DNA of 64,000 nt, from assembly GCA_947631745.1 (NCBI GenBank), contig CANRMM010000002.1:3364-67363 (forward strand), in the 5' to 3' direction. The stretch's first letter is position 1. Each line of letters opens with the position of its first letter. The notes under the pieces were generated by a model that was not told the origin of the DNA, made no database searches, and saw only the letters and a program-made list of their open reading frames with translations. This DNA is from an uncultured Clostridia bacterium (lineage in GTDB: Bacteria; Bacillota; Clostridia; TANB77; CAG-508). This document shows, piece by piece, positions 6,221 to 37,565 of this stretch. The position numbers were made by a program, and so were the translations under genes.

Positions 6221-7183
6221 TTGATAGAAAATAAACAAGAAACAGGCGAAGAAAAAATGGAAAAAAGAAAATTGTTAATACCTAAAATAGATGTTGTTTT
6301 TCATTCTCTTTTTCGATCTAGTAAAGAAAAGTTAATAGGATATTTTATATCAAGTTTAATTCAAAAAAAGGTAAAGGTTATATATGTAGATAAAGATAGG
6401 CATTTGATGAGAAAATATCCAGAAGAAAAATTAGGCATTTTAGATTTACGTACAGAACTAGAAGGTGGAGTTATTTGTAATATAGAAGTACAATTGGCAA
6501 ATCCTGGGAATATTGTAGATCGAATATTATATTATTGGAGCAGAGCATTTGGTGAACAACTGAAAGAAGGAGATGAATACCAAGAATTAAATAAAACAAT
6601 AGGAATATTGATTGTAGATTTTAAATTGAAAGAAATGGAGGGAATAGAGAAATTAGGAACAAAATGGAAGATAATGGCAGAAGGAGAGGAAAATCGAATA
6701 TTGACAGAAAAGCTAGAATTAATTATACTAGAAATACCAAAAGCAAGAGAAATGGTAAAAATGGGGAAAAAAGATAAAATAGTGGAATGGCTAATGTTTT
6801 TGGATAATCCAAATAGTGTGGAGGTAACAAAAATAATGGAGGAGAACGAAGAAATAAAGGAAGCTGTGGAAGAATTAGAAGAAATTAGTCAAGACGAAGA
6901 ATTAAAAAGAGTAGCTTTTTTGAAAGAAAAATATATACGAGATGAAAAAAGTGCAAGAAGATATTATAAAGAACAAGGATTAGAAGAAGGTAGAATATTA
7001 GGAATAAAGCAAGGTGTAAAAGAAGGAATAAAAGAAGGAAAAAAAGAAGGAATAAAGGAAGGCAAAAAAATAAATACAGAGGAAATTGCAAAAAAAATGC
7101 TACAAAAAAATTTTCCAATAGAAGTGATTATGGAGATAACAAATTTAACAGAAGAAGAAGTTAAGAAGATTCAATCTAATTAA
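6221..7183 (+). CDS. Rpn-family recombination-promoting nuclease / PD-(D/E)XK putative transposase
   Basis: LIPKIDVVFHSLF...ILDLRTELEGGVICNIEVQL pattern of Rpn/YhgA (PDDEXK_2) proteins; C-terminal KEGIKEGKKEG repeats; SD AAAGGAG before TTG start (ATG 6257 alternative). Confidence 0.75.
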   Translation: MIENKQETGEEKMEKRKLLIPKIDVVFHSLFRSSKEKLIGYFISSLIQKKVKVIYVDKDRHLMRKYPEEKLGILDLRTELEGGVICNIEVQLANPGNIVDRILYYWSRAFGEQLKEGDEYQELNKTIGILIVDFKLKEMEGIEKLGTKWKIMAEGEENRILTEKLELIILEIPKAREMVKMGKKDKIVEWLMFLDNPNSVEVTKIMEENEEIKEAVEELEEISQDEELKRVAFLKEKYIRDEKSARRYYKEQGLEEGRILGIKQGVKEGIKEGKKEGIKEGKKINTEEIAKKMLQKNFPIEVIMEITNLTEEEVKKIQSN

Positions 7184-12852: not shown

Positions 12853-13131
12853 TTAGGTGAATACACATTATACATATTTTTATGTTTGTCAAATTAATTA
12901 TAAAGTGGATTATTAGGGGCATAAAAGAGAAAAACCTAATTTAATAGGACAAGCGTAATTTTAGAATAGCAAAGTTCTTTTAGAAATGAATATAATTGTT
13001 AGAAATTGTAAATTAAACAAATAATAAAAAAAATTGTAATTTTACAAAGGAGTAAAAAATTATTTAGGAAACAATATTGTAAGAAACTGGATATTATGGT
13101 AAAATGTAAACTAATGAAAATGGAGGTAAAT

Positions 13132-14367
13132 ATGTTGGAAAAAATCCCAAATCATTTATTAGAATTAATTAAAGAAGGAGAAAAAATATCAATAGAATTT
13201 AAAGAGGCTGGTGTAGCATTACCGGAAGACTTATTTGAAACTATATGTGCATTTCTAAATAGAAATGGAGGACATATATTTTTAGGAGTAAATAACAATG
13301 GAAAAATAACAGGAGTTTCAAAAGAACATATAGAAATGATGAAAAAAGATTTTGCTAATTTATGTAATAATCCACAAAAAATAAATCCCACGGTATATTT
13401 AAAAATTGATGAATATGAAATAGATAATTTGAGAATATTACATATATATGTGCATGAAAGTTCAGATGTTCATAAAACTAAAAATAGAATCTTTGATAGA
13501 AACGAAGATGGTGACTATGATATTACTCAAAATACGACTTTAGTTGCTAATATGTATTTGAGAAAGCAAAAAACTTATACTGAAAATAAGATATATCGAT
13601 ATGTAACGATAAATGATTTGAGAAAAGACCTGATAGAGAGAGCAAGGCAAATGGCCGTAAATAGAGCAGGAAATCATATATGGGAAACAATGACAGACTT
13701 AGAAATGCTAAAAAGTGCATCCTTATATGAAATAAACTATGAAACAGGAGAAGAAGGATTTACGCTTGCAGCGATACTATTATTAGGAAAAGATGATGTT
13801 ATACAATCTGTCTTACCACATCATAAGACAGATGCAATTTTAAGAGTAGAAAATGTAGATAGATATGATGACAGAGATGATATAAGAACGAATTTAATAG
13901 AAAGTTATGATAGATTAGTTGCATTTATAAGGAAACATTTAAGTGAAAAATTCTATATTGAAAATGATCAAAGAATAAATGTTAGAGATAAAATTGCAAG
14001 AGAAATTTGTGCTAATATACTTATTCATAGAGAGTATTCTAATCCATTTCCAGCAAAATTAATAATAGACAAACATTATATTAGAACTGAGAATGCCAAT
14101 AAGCCTAAAATGATAGGATGTATAAATATTACTGATTATGTTCCTTATCCTAAAAATCCTAAAATAGCAAAGTTTTTTAAAGAAATTGGTTTAGCAGACG
14201 AGTTAGGATCTGGAGTAAGAAATGTTGCCAAATATACTAAAATATATTCAGGTGGAATACCAATATTTAAAGAAGATGATATTTTTAAAACGGAAATATT
14301 AATATCAAGTGAAAAAAATAAAGAAATAGATATAACCGGCGATAAACCGGCGATAAACCGGCGATAA
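13132..14367 (+). CDS. AlbA_2 (Schlafen-like DNA-binding) + RecG-C-like (HATPase_c_4) regulator, truncated before its C-terminal winged helix
   Basis: ISIEFKEA...LNRNGGHIFLGVNNNGKITGV (AlbA_2 pattern); PKNPKIAKFFKEIGLADELGSGVRNV (HATPase_c_4 pattern); ends inside an 11-bp tandem repeat. Confidence 0.7.
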   Translation: MLEKIPNHLLELIKEGEKISIEFKEAGVALPEDLFETICAFLNRNGGHIFLGVNNNGKITGVSKEHIEMMKKDFANLCNNPQKINPTVYLKIDEYEIDNLRILHIYVHESSDVHKTKNRIFDRNEDGDYDITQNTTLVANMYLRKQKTYTENKIYRYVTINDLRKDLIERARQMAVNRAGNHIWETMTDLEMLKSASLYEINYETGEEGFTLAAILLLGKDDVIQSVLPHHKTDAILRVENVDRYDDRDDIRTNLIESYDRLVAFIRKHLSEKFYIENDQRINVRDKIAREICANILIHREYSNPFPAKLIIDKHYIRTENANKPKMIGCINITDYVPYPKNPKIAKFFKEIGLADELGSGVRNVAKYTKIYSGGIPIFKEDDIFKTEILISSEKNKEIDITGDKPAINRR

Positions 14368-14871: not shown

Positions 14872-16377
14872 CTAAATATTATATATATCCTTTTTTGCAA
14901 AATGACGAATAGCAATACCTAACAGTGCTATCTCATATATTAAACAAATGCATACTGAAAAAGGAAGTGTTAATACATTAATATCAGGTATTCGACCAAA
15001 TAAATAGATACTAAAATCCCAATTATTTGTTATAAAGTATTTAGCGATAGGAGTAAGTGCAGAAATTTCAGACCATTGAGCGATAACAGTACTGCAAATA
15101 AAAAAGATTATTAAAGTAAGAATCATTGTCATAACAGAGTGATTATTCATAACACTCATAAATATGCAAAATGTAACAATTATAAAATACATTGGCAATT
15201 TGCATAATAACAAAAGTAGTAAATAAACAAATAAATTTAAAGTAAATACGGAATTAGAAGTATAGTTATAACCAATGTAACCAATACTATAGCTATCAAA
15301 TCCAAAGATGATTCCACCAACAATATATTGTACTAAAATCATAAACAAAGTAGTTATTATAATTGTTATTACACAAGCTAAGATTTTTGAAATTAAAATT
15401 TGACTGCGTTTATGAGGCTTGGTAAGTAAATTCTTAATTGTTCCTTTATTTTTTTCTTCTGCTATGCTAGTGCAAGCTATATAAATTGCTATTGCCACAA
15501 TTACAATATCAAAATGTTTAAATGATCTTATCAAAGAAATTCTGGCATCAACTTTATTATGAGAGAGTACAGTAATTGCACTATCTGAAATATCATAATT
15601 AATTTTATTTTCCAAGGCATATTTATTTAAAGCAACATTTAATTTACAATTTTTTATTGTTTTATTATAAATGCTATCAGATTTATTGGATTTTAGACAA
15701 GATTCTAAAAGATATTGTTTCGATCTCCAATTACTTATGTAATCATTGAAAATATCATCATTAAAAGGAATATCATATTTTAATCGATATTCATATATTT
15801 CTATTTCAATATTCAAACTTTTCTTTTCATCAGAAGTAATAGAAGGGGATTCGGTTTTTTGACGTAAATTTTTAATTTTTAATGCAACAAATTCTTTCCA
15901 ATCATCATTATTTAAAGCTTGTACATATTGTTTATATATTTTTTGGGCTTCTTCATAATCACTTTTTTGAATATTAGAATTAGGATTTATTTCATAATCA
16001 ATTATAGTAGTCAAATTAGATTTTATATCTTGATAAAAATTTGTGGGAAAATCCTGAACATCATGACTGGTATTCTCTTCACCTAAAGCATATTTTTGCC
16101 AAGAATTTTCTGAATAACTGTTATATAGTTTACCAAATTCAATAGACAATTTTTGGGAAACATAAAACTTATCATTTTTATCCATGTTTTCGAAGGCTCG
16201 CTCGAGAGCATCAATATTAAAATCCAAAGGTCTAAAAAAAATTTTATTTTGATCAGGATTAGCATAATTAAATAAAGCAATGATAATAATGATGATGAGT
16301 AGCAATAAATAAAAACTTTTTTTCTTAAAAATTTTAATCAGTTCATTTTCAATTAACTTAATCAATGTCTGTACCAC
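14872..16377 (-). CDS. ABC-2 type exporter permease with large extracytoplasmic domain
   Basis: N-terminal TM, about 270-aa soluble loop, then EEKNKGTIKNLLTKPHKRSQIL and 5 TM segments; GTG start overlaps ATPase stop. Confidence 0.75.
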   Translation of the reverse strand: MVQTLIKLIENELIKIFKKKSFYLLLLIIIIIIALFNYANPDQNKIFFRPLDFNIDALERAFENMDKNDKFYVSQKLSIEFGKLYNSYSENSWQKYALGEENTSHDVQDFPTNFYQDIKSNLTTIIDYEINPNSNIQKSDYEEAQKIYKQYVQALNNDDWKEFVALKIKNLRQKTESPSITSDEKKSLNIEIEIYEYRLKYDIPFNDDIFNDYISNWRSKQYLLESCLKSNKSDSIYNKTIKNCKLNVALNKYALENKINYDISDSAITVLSHNKVDARISLIRSFKHFDIVIVAIAIYIACTSIAEEKNKGTIKNLLTKPHKRSQILISKILACVITIIITTLFMILVQYIVGGIIFGFDSYSIGYIGYNYTSNSVFTLNLFVYLLLLLLCKLPMYFIIVTFCIFMSVMNNHSVMTMILTLIIFFICSTVIAQWSEISALTPIAKYFITNNWDFSIYLFGRIPDINVLTLPFSVCICLIYEIALLGIAIRHFAKKDIYNI

Positions 16378-17086
16378 CTACCTTCTTAATAAAAGCATCT
16401 TCTAAGGTAGAATCTTTAGATGCAATTAATTTAAAATTATCAATTGTATCATCAGCAACAAGCTTACCATTTTTTATCGCAACAATTCGATTACATACTT
16501 TATCAATTTCACTTAGATTATGACTAGAAATTAAAATTGCAATTCCATTGTCAGATAACTTTTTAATGAGTTCTCTCATTTCAATAATTCCTTCAACATC
16601 AAGACCGTTGGTAGGTTCATCTAAAATTAAAAACTCAGGATGATTTAAAATAGCTTCTGCAATGCCTAATCTTTGTTTCATTCCAAGAGAATAGGTAGAA
16701 ACTTTATCTTTAATTCTATTTTCTAAGCCAACAATTTTTACGACTTCGTTAATTCGCTCTTTTCCAATATTTTTAAAGTTATTAGCAGCAATTTTTAAAT
16801 TATCATATCCAGACAAATACATATATGAAGCAGGGCTCTCAACAATGGCACCAACTTTATCAATAGCTTTTACAAAATCTTTTTGAATATCAAATCCATT
16901 AATCAAAACAGTTCCTTCTGTTATTTTAATAAGACCTAAAATTAGTTTTATAATTGTTGTTTTACCAGCACCATTAGCACCAATCAAACCAACTACATCA
17001 CCACTATTGATAGAAAAAGAAATATTTTCTACAATTACTTTATTCTTTATTTTTTTCTTTAAATTTTCACATTTTAATACTTCCAT
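16358..17086 (-). CDS. ABC transporter ATP-binding protein
   Basis: Walker A GANGAGKTT, signature LSLGMKQR, Walker B FLILDEP; start MEVLKCENL behind AGGAGGA. Confidence 0.9.
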   Translation of the reverse strand: MEVLKCENLKKKIKNKVIVENISFSINSGDVVGLIGANGAGKTTIIKLILGLIKITEGTVLINGFDIQKDFVKAIDKVGAIVESPASYMYLSGYDNLKIAANNFKNIGKERINEVVKIVGLENRIKDKVSTYSLGMKQRLGIAEAILNHPEFLILDEPTNGLDVEGIIEMRELIKKLSDNGIAILISSHNLSEIDKVCNRIVAIKNGKLVADDTIDNFKLIASKDSTLEDAFIKKVGGTDID

Positions 17087-17096
17087 AACTTTCCTC

Positions 17097-18057
17097 CTAT
17101 GATTCATTTACAATATCTTTTTCTTTAAAGACTTTTAATATGATGACGGTAAGTAGTAAAAAAATTATGACAGAAATGATTAGCATAGAAATAATATTTC
17201 CACTTAACTCACCATATATATATTGGCTTAAATCCCAAGTATAAATACTTCCGCATATAATTTAAAAATATTTCTGTTTTTGATAATAAATATAGTCCTA
17301 AAGAAACTAATATAGAGAGAGGAGTGTTACCAGTAGTAATACCTAGCAATATAATGACTAAATTTAAAATCATAAACATACAAAGTTTAGTACCAAGTAT
17401 AGATAACATATAAAGACATAGGTTCATTGTAACGACAGTATTTGATGAAAAATCATAACGAATAGCATCTAAATTATAACTATCAAAACCAAAAAAAAGT
17501 CCACCTAATAAAAACTGAAATAGAATGATAAAAATAGTAATACCAATACATATACTAAATGAAGTTATTAATTTTGCAAAAAATATGGCGATTCGCTTAT
17601 GAGGTTTAGTAAGTAAATTTTTGATAGTTCCTTTTTGATATTCATCTGAAAAAATAGTACTAGCTACATAGAGAACAATAAAGATAATAGCAATTTCGAA
17701 AAGATTAAATACCTTCATAAGAAGAATCCTAGCATCTGCTGGAAGAGATACATTTTTATTTTCTGAATTTAAAAGAATATTATATTGGATATTATTGTCA
17801 ATTGCATATTTTTCCAAAGCAATTCTTTCAATAACAGTAGAATATTTTTCGGGCTCAGAAAAATTTTCATAATTTTCTAGATAAAAAGTATCTTGTTTAT
17901 ATGATCTTTCATATAAAGTTTGAATAGAATCCTGAGAATTAGTAATTTTTAAAAATAAATTATAGACAGAAATGAGGGCAATTGCTATGAAAAATAAGAT
18001 GTAAATATTCTTATTCTTAAATATCTTTATGATTTCATTTTTTACTAAATTTAACAT
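17097..18057 (-). pseudogene. ABC-2 permease (first gene of exporter operon), frameshifted in an (AT)5 run
   Basis: ORF 17209-18057 stops right after ATATATATAT (17214-17223); next frame continues GELSGNIISMLIISVIIFLLLTVIILKVFKEKDIVNES* to 17097, matching the C-terminal TM of the family. Confidence 0.65.
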
Positions 18058-18077
18058 TTTAATCTCCTTTTTTACAA

Positions 18078-18107
18078 ATTATAACATATAGAATATATTA
18101 GTTACAA
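18078..18107 (-). promoter_or_regulatory. putative promoter of ABC exporter operon
   Basis: Minus strand TTGTAA, 18 nt spacer, TGtTATAAT; same sequence conserved in the duplicate at 25930-25959. Confidence 0.5.
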
Positions 18108-18265
18108 TATTATAAATGGTAAAATTAGAGTAATTAATATATAGATAGAAATTTTATAATATAAACTAATTATTACATTTTTATGTTATTATTTTAAATA
18201 AATATATAAAAAAACATCTTATAAGTAGATTGGGTTTGCAAACGATATAAAAAATAGGAGGAAAA

Positions 18266-18796
18266 ATGGAAGAACTAGTAGAGAAAGCAAGAAAAGGAGA
18301 TAAAAAAGCTTTTACAGAACTTATGGTATTATATGAAAGCGATTTATATAAGATTGCAAGGTCAAGGCTGAAAGACGAAAATGATATATGTGATGCAGTG
18401 CAAGAAACAATGATTATTGCTTTTCAATCTATTAAGAAACTGAAAAATCCCAAGAGTTTTAAATCATGGATTATAAAAATTTTGATTAATCAAAGTAATA
18501 AAATTTATAGATATGAAAATAAAAGAAAAATAGTATCTTTTGAGGAAATAGAAAACGATATGATAGATGAATTTAATATTGAAGATACTGAACAAATACT
18601 AGATTTTAATTTTTTATGTAAAAATTTAAAATATGAAGACAGAATTATAATGGTGCTGTATTACATAGAAAAGTTTACAGATAAGGAAATAGGAGAAATA
18701 CTAAATTTAAAGGAAAGTACCGTAAGAACTAAAAGGTTTAGAGTTTTACAAAAGATGAAAGATAGTATAAAAGGAGGAAAGAAGATATATGAATGA
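18266..18796 (+). CDS. ECF-type sigma-70 family RNA polymerase sigma factor
   Basis: Region 2 (DAVQETMIIAFQSIKKLKNPKSFKSWIIKILINQ) and region 4 HTH (EKFTDKEIGEILNLKESTVRTKRFR). Confidence 0.85.
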   Translation: MEELVEKARKGDKKAFTELMVLYESDLYKIARSRLKDENDICDAVQETMIIAFQSIKKLKNPKSFKSWIIKILINQSNKIYRYENKRKIVSFEEIENDMIDEFNIEDTEQILDFNFLCKNLKYEDRIIMVLYYIEKFTDKEIGEILNLKESTVRTKRFRVLQKMKDSIKGGKKIYE

Positions 18797-19970
18797 GATA
18801 GAAGGAAATGAATATTATGAACTAGAACAAAGGTTATATCATGATTTGAATTTAGAAATAGAGATTCCAGATAAATTTAAAAGAATAATAAGGGAAGGGC
18901 CAAGAGAGAATAAAAAATATAGTAAATTTGCAAAAATAGTCGCAACAATTTGTGCTACGCTTTTAATAGGAGCTGGAATTGTATATGCAGGAGTTAGCAT
19001 ATACGAAAACATTTGGAAGAAACCAGAGAAGATAGAGGGATTTTATAGTGGAGAAGGAGAAAATATATATCCAATTACTGAAGAAGAAAAAAGCAGTGTT
19101 ATATCTGAATCAGATGCCAAAAAGAGAGCAGAGCAAATATTAAAACAATTTGGTTGTGAAAATGAAAAAATAAAATCGATCGAAATTGAAAATTTGGCAG
19201 TAGATTATGATTTATTATGGCATATAAGAACAGATAAAAATACAGAAATTTTAATTGATGCAAAAAATACAGATAATTTTAGGATAATGCTCGAAAACGA
19301 ATTAAGTGAGGTAGAAAAATATGAAATAACAGAAAAAGAAGCTGAAGAAATAGCAAAAAACATTTGCAGAAAATTAGGGTATAATATAGATGAATACAAT
19401 GATATAAGAATATTTCATAATGGACTTTTAGATGAGAATATTAAAATGTGGAAAATAGTTTTCTACAAAGAATATAATGAAATTGTAAATCCCTATGAAT
19501 CTATACGTATTGGTTTTATTCCTAAAACTAATAAAATTTGTTATTTCTTTGTGAGTAATAGGGAATTTGAAAACAATCCAATTGAGATAAGAGAAGAACA
19601 GGCAAAAGAAATAGTACTAAAAGAAGAAGAAAAAATAACTATGAAATATAAAGAAATAAAGAATATAGAAACTGAATTAGGCATTATTGAAACAAATGGT
19701 AATGCATATTTGAGAGTAACAGATTATAAAAAATATCGTGAACAACTTTATAAAAGCTATCCAGAAGAAGACGTTGCATTATATCGTACAGAAAGTCATA
19801 TTAGAAGAGCATGGATAGTTACTATAGAATACGATGTTTTGGAAGATACAGAAGAAAGTAATGATATTAATGAAAGGTATTATTCATATTTTGTTGATGC
19901 AACAACAGGAGAAATAATAGGTGGAGAATTATACTATCAAAACATAAAGAAGCTTTTATATGAATATTAA
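18789..19970 (+). CDS. membrane-anchored putative anti-sigma factor with PepSY-like extracytoplasmic repeats
   Basis: ATGAATGA overlap with the sigma gene; single TM (IVATICATLLIGAGIVYAGV); three repeats with PepSY-like pattern, ending YFVDATTGEIIGGE. Confidence 0.55.
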   Translation: MNEIEGNEYYELEQRLYHDLNLEIEIPDKFKRIIREGPRENKKYSKFAKIVATICATLLIGAGIVYAGVSIYENIWKKPEKIEGFYSGEGENIYPITEEEKSSVISESDAKKRAEQILKQFGCENEKIKSIEIENLAVDYDLLWHIRTDKNTEILIDAKNTDNFRIMLENELSEVEKYEITEKEAEEIAKNICRKLGYNIDEYNDIRIFHNGLLDENIKMWKIVFYKEYNEIVNPYESIRIGFIPKTNKICYFFVSNREFENNPIEIREEQAKEIVLKEEEKITMKYKEIKNIETELGIIETNGNAYLRVTDYKKYREQLYKSYPEEDVALYRTESHIRRAWIVTIEYDVLEDTEESNDINERYYSYFVDATTGEIIGGELYYQNIKKLLYEY

Positions 19971-19982
19971 TAACTGAAAGTT

Positions 19983-20010
19983 GGGGTGCCTGAAGCGGGC
20001 ACCCCATTTT
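19983..20010 (+). terminator. G+C-rich terminator
   Basis: GGGGTGCC tgaagc(g) GGCACCCC followed by ATTTTT. Confidence 0.8.
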
Positions 20011-20038
20011 TCCATAAACTAAAGTAATAGCTATTGGA

Positions 20039-20053
20039 AGAAACTAGAGGAGC
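20039..20053. repeat. left arm of perfect 15-bp inverted repeat
   Basis: AGAAACTAGAGGAGC; exact reverse complement at 20711-20725. Confidence 0.9.
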
Positions 20054-20106
20054 AAAATTAGCTTTTACTCAGAGGTTATTTATGCTTTTGATTCGAATAA
20101 ATTAAA

Positions 20107-20685
20107 TTATCTCCAAGCATCTTTCATCAAATAATACCAATAAGTAACAGTACAGGGGAGATTATCGTCATAGTTTCCATTGGCATCAGTAATACGGAAG
20201 TAAATTTGAACTTCTTGATCTCTAGTCACAGGGGCTGATCCAGTTAAAACAGTACCCGTTTTCCCTACAGAGGAAATGCCTTCACCACCAAGCAGAACAG
20301 AAGAGGTATAGGCTTTTAGAATTTGGACAGTCATTTTAACTGACTTGCTACAGCTATATTCGGCATAAATGGCAACGGAATAACCGGTAACACCGATTTT
20401 TTTAACAGGAGTTACGTTATTTCCCTCCATTGTAAACGTACCGACATTAATCCAACCAGTCACATTATTCCAGGTTTCCACTTCAGAAATAGAAGAAACC
20501 GAAGAAAGAACTGTGGAAGTGGGAAGTGTAGCAATGGCTTCTCCGTCACTGTTAAAAGTGATAGTCTGCTTTTCGCTCACAATCACCGAAGGGTTATTGG
20601 CATCGGTAGATTCTGAAGCAGAAGAGGCAGGAACTACGGAGAAACACATAATTGTCGCTAACAAGAGTGCTAAAAACCGTTTCAT
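20107..20685 (-). CDS. secreted protein of unknown family (higher G+C than surroundings)
   Basis: Start MKRFLALLLATIMCFSVVPASSASE (signal peptide) behind AAAGGAG; beta-rich, 2 Cys; codon usage visibly less A+T-biased than neighbours. Confidence 0.6.
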   Translation of the reverse strand: MKRFLALLLATIMCFSVVPASSASESTDANNPSVIVSEKQTITFNSDGEAIATLPTSTVLSSVSSISEVETWNNVTGWINVGTFTMEGNNVTPVKKIGVTGYSVAIYAEYSCSKSVKMTVQILKAYTSSVLLGGEGISSVGKTGTVLTGSAPVTRDQEVQIYFRITDANGNYDDNLPCTVTYWYYLMKDAWR

Positions 20686-20710
20686 AGTAAAAATACTCCT
20701 TTCATAGTTG

Positions 20711-20725
20711 GCTCCTCTAGTTTCT
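20711..20725. repeat. right arm of perfect 15-bp inverted repeat
   Basis: GCTCCTCTAGTTTCT = reverse complement of 20039-20053. Confidence 0.9.
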
Positions 20726-20744
20726 ATGTGCAAAGTTTGCACAT
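20726..20744. promoter_or_regulatory. 19-bp perfect palindrome (candidate operator)
   Basis: ATGTGCAAA g TTTGCACAT, directly abutting the right inverted-repeat arm, in the 5' region of the secreted-protein gene. Confidence 0.6.
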
Positions 20745-20760
20745 GCTTAATATAACATAA

Positions 20761-20767
20761 TTCGACA
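20761..20767 (-). promoter_or_regulatory. perfect Spo0A-box (TGTCGAA)
   Basis: Plus strand TTCGACA = rc of 0A-box consensus TGNCGAA; lies between the Spo0A-like gene and the secreted-protein gene. Confidence 0.5.
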
Positions 20768-20785
20768 ATATTAGATATAAAGAAA

Positions 20786-20813
20786 AATGTATCTTAATGT
20801 ATCTTGATGTATC
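20786..20813. repeat. three direct repeats with 10-bp phasing
   Basis: AATGTATCTT AATGTATCTT GATGTATC; overlaps the stop codon of the Spo0A-like gene. Confidence 0.7.
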
Positions 20814-21570
20814 AAACATAAAAGCTACGAATTATATTTTTATGAACATTTAACAGAACGATACTTATAATAGTTTTTATATTAGGTTTGTGTGGTGTTG
20901 TTAGAGAAAAATAGTTAGTTAATTTGTCTTCAGGGCAGTTATAATACATTGCTTCAGTAGCTCTAACGATATTACATTTTATATTATTACTTGTTTGATT
21001 ATATCTTTGAGCGATTGTTGGATAAACATACTTATTTAAGTTTTCTAGTAGTGCGTCACCTTGAGAAAAAATCATATATATTACATCAATTAAATATTGG
21101 GTACCTTTATGAGAGACATCATAGCTTAGGTATAAAAGTTCATCTGTAATTAAACTTTTTATGTTATGTATTTTATATTTTTCTTCCTTAATTAAAATTA
21201 GTTCATTTATTTGTGATACTATTTGCTCAGTATTTAATGTATTGGGTAATAATTTGTAAATCATCGAATTATCTTTTAACACAGGGTTACTAATTAAATC
21301 CATTTCACCGCAAGTGACAAGAATAGAATTATTATATTGATTTTGATGTTCAGAAACTAATCTGTTAAGTATTTCAATTCCATCATAGTTAGGCATTTTT
21401 AAATCCAGTAATACAATATCTATATTATTTGCAGAACTTAAAAGTTCTAAAGTTTCCTTCCCATCGACTGTAATATTAGAAACTCTTATATAATTAGAAG
21501 TTGCATTAATAGATGACATTAAACTTCTTGCATAATCAACATTATTGTTTGCTATTAATAAATTTAGCAT
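20812..21570 (-). CDS. Spo0A-like response regulator paralog (degenerate receiver + Spo0A_C DNA-binding domain)
   Basis: Receiver: LLIANNN (Asn-Asn where the acidic pair DD is expected), VLLDLKMPNYDG keeps the phospho-Asp position; C-terminal HKGTQYLIDVIYMI...YPTIAQRYNQTSNNIKCNIVRATEAMY matches the Spo0A C-terminal pattern. Confidence 0.75.
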   Translation of the reverse strand: MLNLLIANNNVDYARSLMSSINATSNYIRVSNITVDGKETLELLSSANNIDIVLLDLKMPNYDGIEILNRLVSEHQNQYNNSILVTCGEMDLISNPVLKDNSMIYKLLPNTLNTEQIVSQINELILIKEEKYKIHNIKSLITDELLYLSYDVSHKGTQYLIDVIYMIFSQGDALLENLNKYVYPTIAQRYNQTSNNIKCNIVRATEAMYYNCPEDKLTNYFSLTTPHKPNIKTIISIVLLNVHKNIIRSFYV

Positions 21571-21719
21571 AAAATCATCTCCTATATATAAGAGACATTG
21601 AGAGTATAAAATAATTTCAAAAAATGTAGTATTTTGTATTTTTTTGTCGATTTAATAAATAAAAATAATGAAACTAAAAGATGATAATATATAATCTATT
21701 ATATAGAAGGGAGAAGAAA

Positions 21720-22244
21720 ATGAAAAAATTAAAAGAAAATACTGATGAAAATGATGAAATTTGTTATATATTTGAAAAATATATGCTTGATATGTATAAA
21801 GTAGCTAAATCTCGACTATATGATGAAGAAGACGTGTATGATGCGATACAGGAAACAGGCTATAGATTATACAAAAATATGAAGAAAATTAAACAACCTG
21901 AAAAAATAAAAATATGGCTATTAAAAGTTTTAATTAATGAATGTAACAAGATATATAACAGAAAAAAGAAAGAAGTAAAATTACAAGAGAAGATTTATGA
22001 AGAAGAATTAAAGAATGTAAATAGTAATTATAGTAATGAAGAAATAGAGTTCGATTTTATAATTAAAAGTCTGAACAAAGATGACAGACTAATTTTTTCT
22101 TTATATTATGGAAATAAATTAACAATAAAGGAAATCTCAAAAATTATAGGAAAAAATGAGAACACAATAAAGACCAGAATGAAACGAGCAAAGGAATATA
22201 TTAAAGATAGGTTAGAGAAAGGAGAAGAAAAATATGAAAAATAG
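21720..22244 (+). CDS. ECF-type sigma-70 family sigma factor
   Basis: DAIQETGYRLYKNMKKIKQPEKIKIWLLKVLINE (region 2), LTIKEISKIIGKNENTIKTRMKRA (region 4). Confidence 0.8.
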   Translation: MKKLKENTDENDEICYIFEKYMLDMYKVAKSRLYDEEDVYDAIQETGYRLYKNMKKIKQPEKIKIWLLKVLINECNKIYNRKKKEVKLQEKIYEEELKNVNSNYSNEEIEFDFIIKSLNKDDRLIFSLYYGNKLTIKEISKIIGKNENTIKTRMKRAKEYIKDRLEKGEEKYEK

Positions 22245-23358
22245 TGAATTAGATATGAAATTATATAATTACTATAATAAGATAGAAATGTCTCCTAAAT
22301 TTTACACTTTGCCTAAAAGTATAGCAAAAACAAATTATTATAAAAATAATAAGACATATATTTTGAAATTATCAATAGCTTGTATGTTACTATTGATGAT
22401 ATGTACAGTAACTTTCGGAAAAAACATATATATGTCAATTCTAGAAGCTATGGCTGAAGTTCATGAGGGGGTATCAGTAGCAATTAATAATGATTACTAT
22501 GCTGAGATAGAGATGGAATATGCAAATTCGAACAAAATAAAGTTAAAAGTAAGTGAATTTATTATGGATGACTATAATTTGTTTTTAGGATTTAAAATAG
22601 AAAATAATCGTATGGAAGAAATAAGAAATATAAAGTTTCAAGATATGACTATAACAGATGAGTATAATAATCTAATATTTTGCGATGATAAAGAAGCTTA
22701 TGATAAATATTGTAAAGAAAATAATATGCGAAGTGAAAGAATAACAGAATATAGTTTAACCAATAGGGGATATGGAATAGAGCAAGTAAAACAAGATGGT
22801 AATGAATTGGAAGTGTTGTATAAATTATGCTCAGATGGATATCCAAAAAGTAAAGAATTGCATATACAAATTCATACAATAGAAGCTAAAGGAGAAAAGG
22901 GAGAAACATTGAAACTAGATGGTATATGGAAAATGAAAGTAAATGTACCAAAAGAATTTTATGAGAGAAATTATATTACTTATCAAGTAAAAGATGGTAG
23001 TGACGCTAAATATGGAATGCATATAGACAATATGGTAGTAACTGATACTCAAACTGTTGTATCATATAAAGGAAATTATAATATTGATAATATTACATTT
23101 AATAATACTGAAGAAGAAATATTAGATTTTATTGATAATAATCGTAGCTTTTATGATGAAATAAAACTAAAAAATGAAAAAGGTGAAATATTTAATACTG
23201 CTTCAATGACAGACGCATTTGGTACATATTATTCAAAGGAAAACGAACAATTTGAAGGAAGGTTACCATTTGAACTAACGAAATATGATATAACAGATAA
23301 GATATATTTGATAATTATAAAAAATGGAGAAGAAAAAGTGATAAATTTGGAGAGGTAA
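22234..23358 (+). CDS. putative anti-sigma factor (DUF4179-like, single TM)
   Basis: Overlaps the sigma gene stop; TM LKLSIACMLLLMICTVTF; extracytoplasmic beta-rich domain. Confidence 0.5.
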   Translation: MKNSELDMKLYNYYNKIEMSPKFYTLPKSIAKTNYYKNNKTYILKLSIACMLLLMICTVTFGKNIYMSILEAMAEVHEGVSVAINNDYYAEIEMEYANSNKIKLKVSEFIMDDYNLFLGFKIENNRMEEIRNIKFQDMTITDEYNNLIFCDDKEAYDKYCKENNMRSERITEYSLTNRGYGIEQVKQDGNELEVLYKLCSDGYPKSKELHIQIHTIEAKGEKGETLKLDGIWKMKVNVPKEFYERNYITYQVKDGSDAKYGMHIDNMVVTDTQTVVSYKGNYNIDNITFNNTEEEILDFIDNNRSFYDEIKLKNEKGEIFNTASMTDAFGTYYSKENEQFEGRLPFELTKYDITDKIYLIIIKNGEEKVINLER

Positions 23359-23372
23359 GAAAGGAGTAAAAT

Positions 23373-23792
23373 ATGAAAAAAATTCTCATAATTCTATGCC
23401 TTCCAGTCAGCATTGTAATTTTAGCCTTATGTATAGAAAAAATATTTTATAATTCCATAATATTAGTATTTAAATATGATTATGTTATATGGTGCAATGC
23501 AGACAAACGTAATTATATAACAGAAGAATATGGAATAACTGGAAATTATAATATTATTGCATGTGAAGTTAGTTGGGATAGAGAAAAAATGAAAGTTTAT
23601 AAAATTAAAGAATTACCGTATGGTGTAGGAGAAAGAATAGAAATATCGTCAGCTTTATGTGAGTATGTTAGAGAAAATAATAAGGTAGAAGAAGTTATAA
23701 TAAAATCTTCACTTCCATATATTATAATAGGAATAGTATTAATTATATTAATTAAGACAATGATAAAAAAATATCGTGAACAAGAAGAATAA
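23373..23792 (+). CDS. hypothetical membrane protein (N- and C-terminal TM)
   Basis: ORF with SD AAAGGAG; no recognisable family. Confidence 0.4.
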   Translation: MKKILIILCLPVSIVILALCIEKIFYNSIILVFKYDYVIWCNADKRNYITEEYGITGNYNIIACEVSWDREKMKVYKIKELPYGVGERIEISSALCEYVRENNKVEEVIIKSSLPYIIIGIVLIILIKTMIKKYREQEE

Positions 23793-23903
23793 TTGACATC
23801 AAACTGAAGTAGACCATATTTTACAATGATATACGGGAATAATTCTATAAAAGTAAAAACAACAGGAAGTATAAGTGAATCAGATTCACTTTTATAACAG
23901 AAA

Positions 23904-23934
23904 AAGGTTGCAATCCTTGAATGCAACCTTTTCT
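23904..23934. terminator. bidirectional terminator
   Basis: AAGGTTGCA / TGCAACCTT stem flanked by an A-run and a T-run. Confidence 0.7.
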
Positions 23935-24007
23935 CAACAGCTATTAAATATATAGCAGGTGTTGAACTAAACACATGAACCCATTCTTCTTTCTTTATTT
24001 TTGTTTT

Positions 24008-25177
24008 TCATTGCTTGATATATGGTTTTAAAATTGGTGTTCCTCCAATTATCTCTCCCGTTGTAGCATCTATATAATAAGCATAAAATCTATACATTAC
24101 TCCATCTTTGTCTACAATCCTATTTTTTGTTTCCCCTATATCGTACTCTATCGTAACCTTCCAAACTTTTCTTACTAAAGCCTCTGTACGAAATTCAATA
24201 TAATCTTCTGGAGGATAGTTTTGTTCTAATTGTCTTTTATACTTAGAATAATCCATACTTCTAAAATATGCATCACCATTCATTCTAACAATATCTAAAG
24301 ATGCACTTGTATTTATAATTTTATATCCAATGTCAATCTTGTTTTCATTATTTATGGCTGTTTCAATTGCTTTTTCTTTATCAATGTCTACTGGATTATT
24401 ATCATATTCAATATCATATATAGTAAATCGATATAATTCATTTATTTCTGGAATAAAACCAATATTAATTGATTCATAAGGATTCACAATTCCATCATAT
24501 GTTCTTTTAAAATCAACATACCATATATAAGAATCACTTTCCGAAAGGAGATTTGTACTTATTTTCAAATCATCATATTTTGTTGAATCATATCCATACT
24601 TTTTGCAAAGTTCTTTTGCTGTTATTTCTGCATCCTCCTTCGTAGTTCTATAGTTTTTTATATCTTTATGTAATATATTATTAAATGTTACACTTAAATA
24701 TTTTCCGTCTCCTGCATCAAATGATAAAAATATATTATTTTCTGTTTCAATGCACCATATCACGTCATAATTATCAGGATAATTTTGAAGTTCTATTGAC
24801 TTTATCTTCTCATTTTTATATCCAAATTTTTCTAATATTTTTTTTGCATTTTCTCTTGCCTGCTTTTCTGACATTATTCCTTCATATTTTTTATTTTCAC
24901 TTATGTCCGTAATATTATTTTCTTCCGAATAAAATCCGATTGTTTTCTCTGGCTCTTTCCATATCTTATTAGTTATAGCAGTTCCTGCATATACAATCCC
25001 AACTGATAATACTAAACTAATACTAGCTATTATAGCTACTTTTCGTATTGGATAACCCAATACTTTCTTTTTTTCTTTATCTGTATTTAAACTTTCTTGA
25101 ATAACAGTTTTAAATTCACTTGGAATTTCAATTTTTGAATTTAATTCACGATATAATCTTTTATCTAACTCGTCCAT
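24008..25177 (-). CDS. putative anti-sigma factor, paralog of 18789-19970
   Basis: Same architecture and many identical blocks (IWKEPEK, IVNPYESI.IGFIP, YYIDATTGEIIGG); start ATG 25177 behind AAAGGAG. Confidence 0.55.
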   Translation of the reverse strand: MDELDKRLYRELNSKIEIPSEFKTVIQESLNTDKEKKKVLGYPIRKVAIIASISLVLSVGIVYAGTAITNKIWKEPEKTIGFYSEENNITDISENKKYEGIMSEKQARENAKKILEKFGYKNEKIKSIELQNYPDNYDVIWCIETENNIFLSFDAGDGKYLSVTFNNILHKDIKNYRTTKEDAEITAKELCKKYGYDSTKYDDLKISTNLLSESDSYIWYVDFKRTYDGIVNPYESINIGFIPEINELYRFTIYDIEYDNNPVDIDKEKAIETAINNENKIDIGYKIINTSASLDIVRMNGDAYFRSMDYSKYKRQLEQNYPPEDYIEFRTEALVRKVWKVTIEYDIGETKNRIVDKDGVMYRFYAYYIDATTGEIIGGTPILKPYIKQ

Positions 25178-25713
25178 TTTCTTCACTCCTTTCTAAAATA
25201 TTTTTAATTTTTTGCTTTGCTCGTGTCCTTTTAGTCGTTACCGTAGTTTCTTTCAAGTTTAATATTTTTCCTATTTCTTTATCTGTAAATTTTTCTATAT
25301 AATATAAAATAATAATAGCTCTATCTTCATATTTTAAATTTTTACACATAAAATCAAAATCTAGTAACAAATCTATATCTTCTATATTAGTTGACTCAAT
25401 TAGTCCAGTTCTTTCTGAATCATCAAAAGGTATTATTTTATTTTGACTTTTTTGCTTGTAAATTTTATTGGTTTGATTTATCAAAATTTTAATTATCCAA
25501 GTTTTAAAATATATAACGTGTTTTAATTTTTTAATGGATTTAAAGGCTATTAAAATAGTTTCTTGTACTGCATCATATATATCTTCATTGTTATTTAATC
25601 TCATTTTTGCAACTCTATATAAATCCTTTTCTAATAATAGCATGAGAGTAGTAAAAGCTTCTTTATTGCCGCATTTTTGCTTCTGTTACTAGTTCTTCAA
25701 TATTTTCTTCCAT
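25161..25713 (-). pseudogene. ECF sigma factor paralog of 18266-18796, frameshifted in an A5 run
   Basis: ATG 25713 gives MEENIEELVTEAKMRQ*; the neighbouring frame continues KCGNKEAFTTLMLLLEKDLYRVAKMRL..., colinear with paralog KARKGDKKAFTELMVLYESDLYKIARSRL; shift at AAAAA (25674-25678). Confidence 0.7.
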
Positions 25714-25929
25714 ATTTGTTCCTTTCTAGTTTTGTTTATAAACTCAATCCATATATTAAATGTTCAGTATCCTTCTATTTTTTCATATATCTATATAATT
25801 AGATATTTTTTTATGGAAATTTCTTTCACTTTTTTTATATTTTTTTTCATATCATTTATTATTTCATATCCAAGATATAGGAATATGAGTCAATTCTTTT
25901 AATTTTTGCTGTCTTTTGATATTATAATA

Positions 25930-25959
25930 TTGTAACCAATATATTCTATATGCTATAAT
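25930..25959 (+). promoter_or_regulatory. duplicate copy of the exporter-operon promoter
   Basis: TTGTAA, 18 nt spacer, TGcTATAAT; near-identical to rc of 18078-18107. Confidence 0.5.
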
Positions 25960-26026
25960 TTTTTTACTACTTACTGTCATCATATTAAAAATCTTTAAAG
26001 AAAAAAATATTGTAAATGAATCATAG
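25958..26026 (+). pseudogene. 3'-terminal remnant of first ABC-2 permease
   Basis: ...TTTTTACTACTTACTGTCATCATATTAAAAATCTTTAAAGAAAAAAATATTGTAAATGAATCATAG aligns to the last roughly 22 codons of the 17097-18057 gene; everything upstream is deleted back to the promoter. Confidence 0.7.
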
Positions 26027-26035
26027 GAGAGATTT

Positions 26036-26158
26036 ATGGAAGTATTAAAATGTGAAAATTTAAAGAAAAAAATAAAGGATAAGGTAATTGTAGAAAATAT
26101 TTCTTTTTCTATTAATCGTGGTTTTATTAAGAAGGTAGGTGGCACAGACATTGATTAA
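26036..26158 (+). pseudogene. internally deleted ABC ATPase remnant (40 codons)
   Basis: MEVLKCENLKKKIKDKVIVENISFSINRG|FIKKVGGTDID*: the first 27 aa and last 11 aa of the 16358-17086 protein joined directly; Walker A through the D-loop is missing. Confidence 0.8.
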
Positions 26159-27665
26159 GTTAATTGAAAATGAACTAATTAAAATTTTTAAGAAAAAAAG
26201 TTTTTATTTATTGCTACTCATCATCATTATTATTATTGTTTTATTTAACCATGCTAATCCTGATCAAAATCATACTTTAGAGTTTCCTAAAACTTCAGAT
26301 ATGGCTGTTAATCTTTGGGAACAAAACTTAAAAAATAAAGCTGTAAATGATGAAAGTTATATAAATAGTGAAGGTTATATTCAAGACAAATATTCTATTG
26401 AATTTGGTAAGCTATATAACAGTTATCCAGAAAATTCTTGGCAAAGATATGCCTTAAATGATGAACGTAATAGTATATCTGTCCCATTGTTTCCCACAGA
26501 TCTTCATCAAGATATTGAACCTAATTTAAAAACAATAATTGATTATGAAATAAATCCTAATTTTAATATTCAGAAAAATGATTATGAAGAAGCAAAAAAA
26601 ATATATGAACAATATATGCAAGCTTTAAATAATGACGATTGGAAAGAATATGTTGCACTAAAAATTAAGAACTTACGTCAAAAAAGTGAAAGTTCTTCTA
26701 CTACTTCTGATGAAAAGAAAAGTTTGAATATTGAAATAGAAATATATGAATATAGATTAAAATATGATATTCCTTTTAATGATGATATTTTCAATGATTA
26801 CATAAGTAATTGGAGAGAGGAGCAGTATCTTTTAGAATCTTTTTTAAAAATGGGTACTTCTGATGAGTTTTATTATCAAACGACACAAATTTGTAAATTA
26901 AATATTGCTTTAAGTAAATATGCCTTGGAAAATAAAATTGAATATGATATTTCAGATAGTGCAATTACTGTACTCTCTCATAATAAAGTTGATGCCAGAA
27001 TTTCTTTGATAAGATTATTTAAACATTTTGATATTGTAATTGTTGCAGTAGCAATTTATATATCTTGCACTAACATAACCGAAGAAAAAAATAAAGGAAC
27101 AATTAAAAATTTACTTACCAAACCTCATAAACGTAGTAAAATTTTAATTTCAAAAATCTTAGCTTGTATAATAACAGTTATAATAACTACTTTGTTTATG
27201 ATTATTGTACAATATGTTGTTGGTGGAATCATCTTTGGATTTGATAGTTACAATATTGATTACATTGGTTATAACTATACTTCTGATTCTGTATTTACTT
27301 TGAATTTATTTGTTTATTTACTACTTTTGTTATTATGCAAATTACCAATGTATTTTATAATTGTTACATTTTGCATATTTATGAGTGTTATAAATAAGCA
27401 TTCTATTATGGCAATGATTCTTACTTTAAGCATTTTTCTAATCCGTACTGATATTGAGAGATATTCTAGATTTCCTGTATTTACTCCTATTGCTAAATAT
27501 TTTATAACAAATAATTGGGATCTTAGTATATTTTTATTTGGACGAATACCTGATTTTAATGTATTAACACTTCCTTTTTCAATATTTGTTTGTTTAATCT
27601 ATGAGATACTACTATTAATTATTGCTATTCGTCATTTTTCAAAAAGGGATATATATAATATTTAG
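26139..27665 (+). CDS. ABC-2 permease, close paralog of 14872-16377
   Basis: GTG start; 3 differences in the first 44 residues versus the paralog; same TM layout. Confidence 0.75.
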   Translation: MAQTLIKLIENELIKIFKKKSFYLLLLIIIIIIVLFNHANPDQNHTLEFPKTSDMAVNLWEQNLKNKAVNDESYINSEGYIQDKYSIEFGKLYNSYPENSWQRYALNDERNSISVPLFPTDLHQDIEPNLKTIIDYEINPNFNIQKNDYEEAKKIYEQYMQALNNDDWKEYVALKIKNLRQKSESSSTTSDEKKSLNIEIEIYEYRLKYDIPFNDDIFNDYISNWREEQYLLESFLKMGTSDEFYYQTTQICKLNIALSKYALENKIEYDISDSAITVLSHNKVDARISLIRLFKHFDIVIVAVAIYISCTNITEEKNKGTIKNLLTKPHKRSKILISKILACIITVIITTLFMIIVQYVVGGIIFGFDSYNIDYIGYNYTSDSVFTLNLFVYLLLLLLCKLPMYFIIVTFCIFMSVINKHSIMAMILTLSIFLIRTDIERYSRFPVFTPIAKYFITNNWDLSIFLFGRIPDFNVLTLPFSIFVCLIYEILLLIIAIRHFSKRDIYNI

Positions 27666-37425: not shown

Positions 37426-37565
37426 ATTGAAAGTACTCCTATACAAAAATTGAGATTTATTATATCATATATATGAAATAAGGCAAGTAAAAATGAGTTT
37501 TTTATTGCACATCTTTTTTGATAATGCTATAATAAAAAAGAGGTAATATAAAGAAAGGTATTGAA

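Follow-up and report, generated by a model that had tools for sequence, protein, structure and literature searches.

Within a 64,000-nucleotide stretch of DNA from an uncultured Clostridia bacterium, referred to below as the window, a gene on the minus strand (20812..21570) encodes a 252-amino-acid (aa) protein in which a receiver domain precedes a Spo0A_C-type DNA-binding domain. Judged by its sequence, this protein, which we call the regulator, is a diverged Spo0A-type paralog and not Spo0A itself, its receiver is a derived pseudo-receiver, and it belongs to an uncharacterised family of orphan response regulators that is chromosomal in uncultured gut Clostridia. Three direct repeats phased by 10 bp, located at the end of the regulator gene, are probably this family's own boxes, and they lie upstream of the predicted promoter of a gene for a secreted protein, called the target gene below (20107..20685, minus strand). 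We consider it fairly probable that the pseudo-receiver regulator binds these TGTATCT boxes and activates the secreted-protein gene without being phosphorylated. Wider in reach, and put forward only tentatively, is the suggestion that an unnamed gut Clostridia family has re-tuned the Spo0A fold to the box TTTGTAWCTT, through which it would drive a bracketed, GC-rich gene for a secreted jelly-roll protein in SigV/RsiV-like envelope-stress loci, with or without phosphorylation. The mRNA of that gene would have a hairpin at its 5' end and be closed by pairing of its untranslated ends, or else the DNA between the bracketing arms would invert.

A Spo0A-type regulator, its family and its receiver pocket

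The regulator gene was taken from the open reading frame (ORF) list, its coordinates including the stop codon, and the two domains that a preliminary description of this DNA had read in its 252-aa product both scored above their Pfam thresholds. Response_reg (PF00072) reached 37.2 bits against a cut-off of 30.2 over residues 5-78, covering model positions 2-70 of 111 only, and Spo0A_C (PF08769) reached 43.9 bits against a threshold of 25 over residues 141-238 (model positions 1-100 of 104). Matches in the PDB comprised the Spo0A receiver (1dz3/1qmp) and the Spo0A DNA-binding domain (1lq1 and 1fc3), with a phmmer E of 2.9e-5 for 1lq1_A against residues 136-236; the DNA-binding domain was placed at 20857..21150 (minus strand) from the Pfam and phmmer ranges. 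An AlphaFold2 model of the regulator, computed with 37 family sequences, had a mean predicted local distance difference test (pLDDT) score of 92, with five strands alternating with helices in the receiver half and an all-helical structure beyond residue 114. Using Foldseek, the N-terminal half could be superposed on the Spo0A receivers 1qmp and 5wq0 with target-normalised template modelling (TM) scores of 0.74-0.84; in this search, which used the whole protein, receiver matches filled the top 50, without 1LQ1 or 1FC3 among them. Together with the PDB and family alignments, this delimited the degenerate receiver domain at 21211..21570 (minus strand). The regulator aligned collinearly with B. 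subtilis Spo0A over residues 4-256, at 24.7% identity, and no other protein encoded in the 64-kb window aligned to B. subtilis Spo0A. Even though TIGR02875, the Spo0A equivalog model, was the best NCBIfam match of the regulator, it scored only 68.7 bits against a cut-off of 200. The profiles of the output domain and of Spo0A as a whole therefore gave different answers, the first being passed and the second failed, which supports the earlier proposal of a Spo0A-type paralog distinct from Spo0A.

A word-indexed search with the regulator returned 105 clusters (E 1e-87 to 1e-16 for 104 of them), mostly of 234-259 aa, nearly all of which contain Response_reg plus Spo0A_C; the nearest relative was 62% identical. 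When the C-terminal 117 residues were searched exhaustively, 519 clusters at 50% identity were found with E<=1e-3, 264 of them with E<=1e-10, and we put the size of the family at no fewer than these 264 clusters. The family-invariant residues of the C-terminal part (G156, T157, Y159, L160, Y183, M208, C212, Y220 and F221) are all present in the regulator. All family members come from uncultured organisms, exclusively through metagenomes or metagenome-assembled genomes, the two named records being 'uncultured Clostridia bacterium' from rabbit and wild mouse gut, and a look-up of the cluster names gave nothing informative, with the one exception of 'CheY-like chemotaxis protein'. Contigs carrying the window sequence were found in ENA assembly ERZ27249657 and in the Logan assemblies of runs ERR10663779 and ERR10663780. 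A genome scan with a narrower family alignment was dominated by generic receiver patterns, and the true members in it were L001 and L002 only (L numbers designate loci and P numbers proteins throughout). Plasmid and phage genome collections held no match to the C-terminal domain of the regulator (tblastn for phage), and a literature search returned solely the close Spo0A duplicate of C. thermocellum (PMC4890492).

Several side observations concern the outline of this family. In PHROGs, regulator residues 3-225 matched phrog_37855 (function unknown) with an E of 1.6e-17, presumably a phage-borne Spo0A-like group, which contrasts with the zero tblastn matches of the C-terminal domain in phage genomes. 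Some proteins with the C-terminal domain have unusual lengths, such as P0146 (531 aa) and P0221 (314 aa), and in one 531-aa protein the domain is close to the N-terminus; many further matches, of 112-180 aa, may represent the DNA-binding domain on its own or fragments of genes. In L070 (1722-2288, minus strand) and L088/L089 (324-1071, minus strand), a second, more distantly related Spo0A_C-type gene is located within a few kb of the family regulator, and several paralogs are therefore possible per genome. Contigs of relatives include SpoIVA and YtfJ genes.

As the preliminary description had claimed, Asn-Asn replaces the acidic pair of the receiver. Indeed, IANNN of the regulator stands over IADDN of Spo0A in the PDB alignment, with N8-N9 (21544-21549, minus strand) aligned to Spo0A D10-D11. 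The claim that the phospho-acceptor is retained was likewise confirmed by the PDB and family alignments, in which D56 (21403-21405, minus strand) lies within LLDLKMP, over LLDIIMP of Spo0A. What did not hold was the reading of YKLLP as a loosened K-P motif: the conserved Lys of the family follows the proline (ILPK/LPK; K in 82 of 101 members), the regulator carries Asn110 at this position (YKLLPN; 21241-21243, minus strand), and the Lys is thus lost, K106 of YKLLP being a mid-strand position that is not conserved family-wide. The family Ser position is occupied by C87, and since a Thr (T86) lies one residue upstream, this position is ambiguous. The five-residue pocket accordingly reads N8-N9-D56-C87-N110, compared to an intact D/E-D-D-S/T-K pocket in 74 of the 101 aligned family members. 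A receiver in which any of the five residues is absent is a pseudo-receiver by definition (PMC12632262), and the regulator, with both DD residues and the K absent, falls under this definition, as the preliminary description had suspected; D56 being kept, it is not aspartate-less.

Pseudo-receiver states were found in the other 27 of the 101 members, whole sub-branches included, with D56 changed to K, N or Y in some of them. The variety of degenerate pockets across the family implies that the loss arose repeatedly, and the intact pockets of the close relatives P0002-P0006 imply that it is recent in the lineage of the window. Given that the Mg2+-binding acidic pair and the catalytic Lys are lost, the regulator is probably independent of aspartyl phosphorylation. 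We weighed this against a receiver that still works as a switch, with Asp56 phosphorylated by an orphan kinase or with a ligand or partner being sensed, so that the regulator would not be constitutive, which we judge unlikely. Such a switch would fit the retention of Asp56 and LLDLKMP, as well as the intact pockets in most of the family, which make it probable that family kinases exist, and the observation that the receiver diverges no faster than its intact relatives (60% identity to the receiver of the nearest relative, where intact pairs range from 52 to 71%). However, the receiver lacks three of its five catalytic residues, the two metal ligands and the Lys among them, and in C. difficile Spo0A equivalent single mutations are crippling, D10, D11 and K108 being the aspartyl pocket of Spo0A whose mutation leaves C. 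difficile severely defective. Moreover, no kinase gene was present in any regulator neighbourhood examined.

Alternatively, the regulator gene could be a decaying, functionless duplicate and the repeats its leftovers, an idea to which we give very little credence. Even though four of the five active-site positions are altered in the regulator alone among its close relatives, its reading frame is intact and of full length, the identical protein is encoded on 6 contigs, and its DNA-binding domain is 65% identical to that of the nearest relative, with the family-invariant residues kept. The recurrence of pseudo-receiver states across the family also points to a tolerated functional state and not to decay.

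Phased boxes and the recognition helix

The three 10-bp-phased direct repeats noticed in the preliminary description are present and read AATGTATCTT AATGTATCTT GATGTATC from 20786. They contain the tandem boxes TGTATCT, TGTATCT and TGTATCA at 20788-20794, 20798-20804 and 20808-20814 (plus strand; array 20786..20814), which overlap the regulator stop codon and are located at about -46 to -72 from the predicted target transcript start. Scored against the pattern TGTA[AT]CT with at least 6 of 7 matches required, the boxes reach 7, 7 and 6 of 7 and form the sole 10-bp-phased pair or triple within the 64 kb. In 15-16 non-redundant family loci, oriented on the regulator gene, the flanks of the family regulators yielded the box consensus WWTGTAWCTT. 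Arrays were found upstream of regulators, such as in L001 (AAAGTTACAA AAAGTTACAT), L083 (two copies of AAAGATACAA) and L073 (three to five GTTAC/GTTGC boxes), as well as immediately past regulator stop codons, such as in L085 (TGTATCTTTT TATATCTTTT) and L088 (TATATCTTTT TGTATCTTTT). Further 10-bp arrays occupy various positions relative to the regulator in L086, L077, L097 and L093, and one ECF (extracytoplasmic function) sigma promoter, in L075, also carries an array. This last placement belongs to a side observation, namely that in both L075 (3242-3268) and L080 (1830-1856) the ECF sigma gene is preceded by an array of three boxes (AGTTACT aaa TGTAACT tta ...), a hint that the regulator family might also control the sigma/anti-sigma operon.

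The spacing of the boxes was examined relative to the regulator genes. Among box pairs within 300 bp of regulators, 10-bp spacing occurred 14 times and 20-bp spacing 4 times, with any other spacing up to 32 bp seen at most once, while only 2 of about 240 pairs in the other 127 kb of the same loci were spaced by 10 bp. Three-box arrays were 14 times denser within 300 bp of regulators. In a motif-blind test, exact 7-mers recurred at a 10-bp offset with a frequency of 0.90/kb near regulators versus 0.078/kb elsewhere, and the remaining offsets of 7-15 near regulators totalled one match. Hexamer enrichment lent modest support, with TGTATC enriched 2.8-fold and ranked below ribosome-binding-site words; the spacing tests are more informative in this respect. 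We think it rather improbable that the repeats are bound by another factor, or reflect bent DNA or slippage duplications, with the targets of the regulator lying elsewhere. Several relatives do have boxes embedded in phased A/T tracts (AAAAAGTTACAAAAAGTTAC), which bend DNA themselves, and the proposed binding of the boxes by the regulator is drawn from comparison. However, the conserved part is the TGTAWC core and not the A-tracts, which the window array lacks altogether. Another factor would also have to explain why 10-bp arrays follow regulators that are only 36-62% identical, with a frequency about 11-fold lower in the rest of these AT-rich loci, and why they occur in all the placements described above.

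The family also departs from Spo0A in its recognition helix. Within the Spo0A_C-type domain, the recognition helix TSNNIKCNIVRATEAM (20947-20994, minus strand) carries N/K/C/V/R at the residues aligned to B. subtilis R211/E213/R214/R217/H218, and at the positions of R211, E213 and R214 the family conserves N (97/101), K (100/101) and C (66/101). The structure paper for 1LQ1 reportedly sets out which Spo0A residues contact which bases, and the Spo0A domain is said there to bind tandem boxes head to tail. Base-specific contacts of Spo0A involve G2, C4 and G5 of TGTCGAA, through residues that are all conserved from B. subtilis to C. difficile (PMC3485338). In the family box, T1-G2-T3 are unchanged and C4-G5-A6 of the 0A box become A-W-C, a change of box made plausible by the changed helix. 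Two 0A boxes separated by 3 bp constitute a known Spo0A site (PMC2731898), and the 10-bp period of the family boxes corresponds to this 7+3 geometry of tandem Spo0A sites. By eye, the GATAC and GTTAC box variants showed no evident correlation with the recognition-helix sequence. It is because arrays track the family regulators and the recognition helix differs from that of Spo0A that we regard the three phased repeats as probably the family's own boxes.

Could the regulator nevertheless have kept Spo0A specificity, through the heptamers TGTCGAA and TGTCGAT, or could a true Spo0A use these to tie the locus to sporulation? We see a slim chance of either. The perfect 0A box TGTCGAA of the preliminary description does exist at 20761-20767 (minus strand), in the predicted -35/-10 spacer of the target promoter, where a box could serve as a repressing site, and TTCGACA-type heptamers form one member of a phased array in L075, L079, L080 and the upstream region of the window. 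The meaning attached to it did not stand, however. TGTCGAA occurs in the window at chance frequency (2 versus 2.6 expected), the homologous L097 promoter does not have it in register, and the recognition helix differs from Spo0A at conserved positions. The heptamer is thus probably incidental, even though TTCGACA-type heptamers within the phased arrays of L075 may indicate weak recognition of TGTCGAA. Similarly, the near-0A box TGTCGAT is present (at 21645-21651, one position off the 21646-21652 first given), but its reading as a 0A box was not supported: it overlaps TCGACA, a -35 hexamer predicted on the regulator strand. This hexamer is part of the predicted regulator promoter TCGACA-16-TACATT (21623..21651, minus strand), which overlaps a weak 10-bp-phased TGT array in the region that the regulator gene shares with the divergent sigma gene.

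The bracketed target gene

According to the ORF list, the target gene at 20107..20685 (minus strand) encodes a 192-aa secreted protein with a signal peptide, for which no Pfam family was found. It has 41% G+C versus 28% for the genome, and its homologues have 34-45% versus 25-30% for their loci; amino-acid composition, mRNA stability and foreign origin are possible causes. An AlphaFold2 model with 11 database sequences had a core pLDDT above 90 and showed a jelly-roll beta-sandwich, resembling CBM6/CBM36 modules, the Pgp3 C-terminal domain and Cry domain III, weakly in each case. Relatives of the protein form 11 clusters. A target homologue lies beside the family regulator, divergently upstream of it, in L073, L075 and L080, is convergent with the regulator in L097 and is a few genes away from it in L093. 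We had first taken the target to be non-conserved, since the gene downstream of the closest regulator, in L070, has no similarity to it. This was rejected when local BLAST showed that other loci have the homologues at the opposite side of the regulator. Downstream genes of other family regulators all encode secreted proteins, namely a 139-aa protein (L085), a 398-aa ricin-lectin-like protein (L086) and an Amidase_6 protein (L077).

The predicted target promoter combines a good -10 element, TATATT (20749..20754, minus strand), with a poor -35 (TATCTA). TATA.T is invariant in the window, L097, L096 and L093. Upstream of the gene, these four align in a common order, in which boxes are followed by the TATA.T -10, then by a hairpin, then by the arm GAAACTAGAGG and, ahead of the ATG, by TGAAAGGAG; in the window as in L097, 32 nt separate the last box from the -10. 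Over the weak -35 lies TATATCT (20773..20779, minus strand), an inverted box-like heptamer that recurs as a box variant in L085, L086 and L088 and may have a role at this promoter. The target homologue of L096, by contrast, has no boxes and no adjacent regulator, and is preceded by a perfect TTGACA-17-TATAAT promoter. Of the arguments available, this difference speaks most strongly for the boxes being activator sites, which would compensate for the poor -35 of the target promoter. As a side observation, the L096 homologue (3900-4000) is directly downstream of an ECF sigma/anti-sigma pair and adjoins genes for type IV secretion system coupling proteins, and it may be on a mobile element.

The mechanism that we favour is the following. 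The family would recognise its own box, approximately WWTGTAWCTT, as 10-bp tandem direct repeats, and the regulator would bind the three boxes upstream of the target promoter as a head-to-tail multimer. Once bound, it would activate this promoter, with its good -10 and poor -35, and what sets the output would be not aspartyl phosphorylation but how strongly the regulator is itself expressed, or else a partner protein, with a possible link to the SigV/RsiV-like sigma/anti-sigma pairs that flank its gene. We infer box binding, activation rather than repression, and phosphorylation independence from sequence comparison, and several points weigh against this mechanism. Asp56 is kept and a Thr lies beside Cys87, so that some unconventional phosphorylation is conceivable, and both the target promoter and the transcript start are predicted. 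The pattern TGTA[AT]CT was derived from the very loci in which it was counted, the motif-blind 7-mer test alone being independent of it. In addition, L002, L084, L087 and L070 have no array at the thresholds used, the orientation of the boxes relative to the target gene varies among loci, and upstream of the regulator gene in the window itself the array is weak and at most suggestive (TGTAGTA, TGTATTT and TGTCGAT, matching 4, 6 and 4 of 7). Even so, the picture of a family that has phased boxes of its own and a secreted-protein gene dedicated to it, with the window copy as a pseudo-receiver member that would bind and activate, is more coherent than that of the preliminary description.

A 19-bp palindrome, ATGTGCAAAgTTTGCACAT (20726..20744, minus strand), had been counted among the control elements, and it is indeed perfect and unique in the window, where 0.11 would be expected even with 3 mismatches. 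Sequence reading and RNA folding gave an 8-bp stem closed by a loop of 3 nt, which starts no more than a few bases from the point where transcription is predicted to begin. Its counterpart in L097 is TGTGTAAA-TCT-TTTGCACA, with a G.U pair, and in L096 TGTGCG-16 nt-CGCACA, hairpin loops across the relatives ranging from 3 to 16 nt; L073, L075 and L001 have unrelated hairpins at the equivalent position. Since both loop length and sequence vary, a dimeric operator is less likely than a 5'-terminal mRNA stem-loop, a type of element that protects Firmicute mRNAs. We favour reading the palindrome as a hairpin at the predicted 5' end of the target mRNA and not as a site for the regulator, the part of the earlier claim that was not sustained.

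Two arms of 18 nt, complementary to each other at 94%, bracket the target gene. The 5' arm, AGAAACTAGAGGAGCCAA, is located at 20708..20725 (minus strand) and its core GAAACTAGAGG is conserved in L096 and L097, while the 3' arm, TTTGCTCCTCTAGTTTCT on the mRNA strand, is located at 20039..20056 (minus strand) between the stop codon and a two-way terminator hairpin (19982..20006) that is common to the target gene and the convergent anti-sigma gene. Eight homologous loci are bracketed alike, six with 13-16 nt of exact complementarity and two with 13-17 nt and one mismatch. Coordinates of the arms are 1106-1119/1746-1759 in L097, 3965-3979/4648-4662 in L096, 3965-3980/4559-4574 in L093, 5208-5222/5804-5818 in L073, 5246-5265/5805-5824 in L075, 3838-3854/4395-4411 in L080 and 7272-7284/7845-7857 in L001. 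In a control set of 149 ORFs, the longest stretch over which the 5' flank was complementary to the 3' flank usually measured 6-8 nt and never more than 11 nt, apart from one apparent exception, which is explained by inverted box arrays around the L088 regulator. A non-homologous gene for a 340-aa secreted protein beside the L083 regulator (flanks of 462-1484) is also bracketed. Arm sequences differ between lineages and their extensions co-vary (GAGGAGC/GCTCCTC, GAGGTC/GACCTC and GAGGCTTA/TAAGCCTC), and in all loci the arms lie, on the predicted transcript, between the 5' hairpin and the ribosome-binding site, and between the stop codon and the terminator. Duplexes predicted between the 5' untranslated region (UTR) and the 3'UTR had energies of -21 to -33 kcal/mol versus -11 to -20 for shuffled sequences (-32.7 versus -15.2 +/- 3.3 kcal/mol in the window). 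In two lineages the 3' arm resembles an anti-Shine-Dalgarno sequence (CUCCUC). A search of Rfam gave no match.

Inverted repeats around a segment are a hallmark of invertons, and DNA inversion had to be considered as an explanation of the arms. The orientation of the target gene is identical in both places shown, of the 7 contigs carrying it, and the gene lists of all loci examined contain no recombinase. Since the arm sequences are diverse, the arms always fall within the predicted transcript, no recombinase lies nearby and one orientation is seen, we favour end-pairing of the mRNA as the probable function of the arms, leaving inversion a smaller though appreciable share of our expectation.

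Other observations on the bracket were followed up separately. The transcription unit from boxes to terminator has opposite orientations in the window (19970-20830) and L097 (950-1875), between the same anti-sigma and regulator genes. This is an inversion that took place in evolution; mediation by the inverted repeats was rejected, as promoter and boxes moved with the gene and the breakpoints fall beyond the arms. Contig L098, 747 bp long, begins 2 nt past the 5' arm, and reading this as an assembly break was rejected given its 1.35x coverage and its other end, which passes the 3' arm. A GC-rich minus-strand gene at 36565-37446 was rejected as a recombinase candidate, because it encodes a cation efflux protein; it lies on the strand opposite to all its neighbours, in a patch of 39% G+C. 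Finally, a seven-codon frame, MKGVFLL (20682-20705, minus strand), opens 6 nt beyond GAGGAG in the 5' arm, and its terminal ATGA overlaps the target start codon; it is not separately conserved in L097 or L098.

Neighbouring genes and comparison with known systems

Divergent from the regulator, profile matches identified genes for an ECF sigma factor (174 aa) and a DUF4179 anti-sigma protein (374 aa) at 21720..23358 (plus strand), and a second and a third ECF sigma/anti-sigma pair lie at 18266-19970 (plus strand) and 24008-25643 (minus strand). The flanking sigma genes match ECF sigma models, the SigV model giving 68 bits, which is below its equivalog cut-off. Homologous pairs adjoin family regulators in L070, L071, L073, L075 and L093. 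Related loci repeat the combination of regulator, phased boxes, secreted-protein gene and ECF sigma/anti-sigma neighbours, which goes beyond the dedicated regulator-target pair outside a sporulation setting that the preliminary description had proposed and that the data support. The locus as a whole (14872-27665) is roughly mirror-symmetric, with ATP-binding cassette (ABC)-2 transporter genes at 14872-18057 (minus strand) and 26139-27665 (plus strand) and the three sigma/anti-sigma pairs between them; a 393-aa and a 392-aa anti-sigma protein have similar sequences and by eye look like paralogs. Upstream of the locus lie genes for a PD-(D/E)XK family transposase and a Schlafen AlbA_2 / HATPase_c_4 protein (6221-7183 and 13096-14367). 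Otherwise the window is ordinary chromosome, with gatA/gatB, mcsB/clpC, metK, Mur ligase and type IV pilus genes, and PADLOC found no system in it.

If the arms of the target gene do pair in the mRNA, 5'-3' UTR pairing would gain a conserved case in bacteria. In icaR-type 5'UTR-3'UTR pairing, as in the target gene, the leader and the trailer of a single gene hold complementary arms, and invertible DNA switches share with the target gene the inverted repeats that flank a segment. The target gene differs from both in that its arms flank the whole coding sequence and not a promoter, with no recombinase gene nearby. With regard to SigV/RsiV-type pairs, the flanking pairs of the window match ECF sigma and DUF4179, the latter linked to RsiV, with scores below the equivalog cut-offs. 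To our knowledge, an association with a Spo0A-type regulator has not been described for SigV systems, and the gene neighbourhood suggests that the regulator may be functionally linked to these SigV/RsiV-like pairs.

For the pseudo-receiver, a comparison is offered by HP1043/HsrA of Helicobacter pylori, which is described as a DNA-binding protein with a receiver lacking catalytic residues that acts without phosphorylation (PMC12632262; PMC8345958). Proteins of this type have an OmpR/PhoB-type output, whereas the regulator has a Spo0A-type output, keeps its Asp and has close relatives with intact pockets. How pseudo-receivers are activated has been called a mystery in a recent review (PMC12632262), and comparing the regulator with its intact relatives at 50-62% identity could reveal the mode of activation.

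An extra Spo0A-type copy is known from C. thermocellum, whose second Spo0A homologue (Clo1313_0637 / Cthe_3087) stands beside the sporulation regulator and is suspected of a role in stress response (PMC4890492). That paralog is a close copy, 49% identical to B. subtilis Spo0A, whereas the family described here is about 25% identical, with a changed helix and its own box. With Spo0A itself (TIGR02875; PDB 1QMP, 1LQ1 and 1FC3) the regulator shares the layout of receiver and Spo0A_C, collinear over the whole length, and the family shares a heptamer box beginning with TGT, the tandem 7+3 arrangement with its 10-bp period, and boxes near a weak -35. It differs from Spo0A in its low identity and TIGR02875 score, in having no long inter-domain linker, in the replaced recognition-helix residues, in the box TGTAWCT in place of TGTCGAA, and in the loss of the acidic pair and the Lys. 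Its neighbours are ECF sigma/anti-sigma, ABC-2 transporter and secreted-protein genes and not sporulation genes. The Spo0A output domain is usually taken as the signature of one regulator, the switch of endospore formation. A sister family with a changed helix, a predictable box and a one-gene regulon would represent a natural experiment in how the DNA-binding domain of a response regulator changes its specificity, in which the helix changes to N, K and C can be matched to the box change from CGA to AWC.

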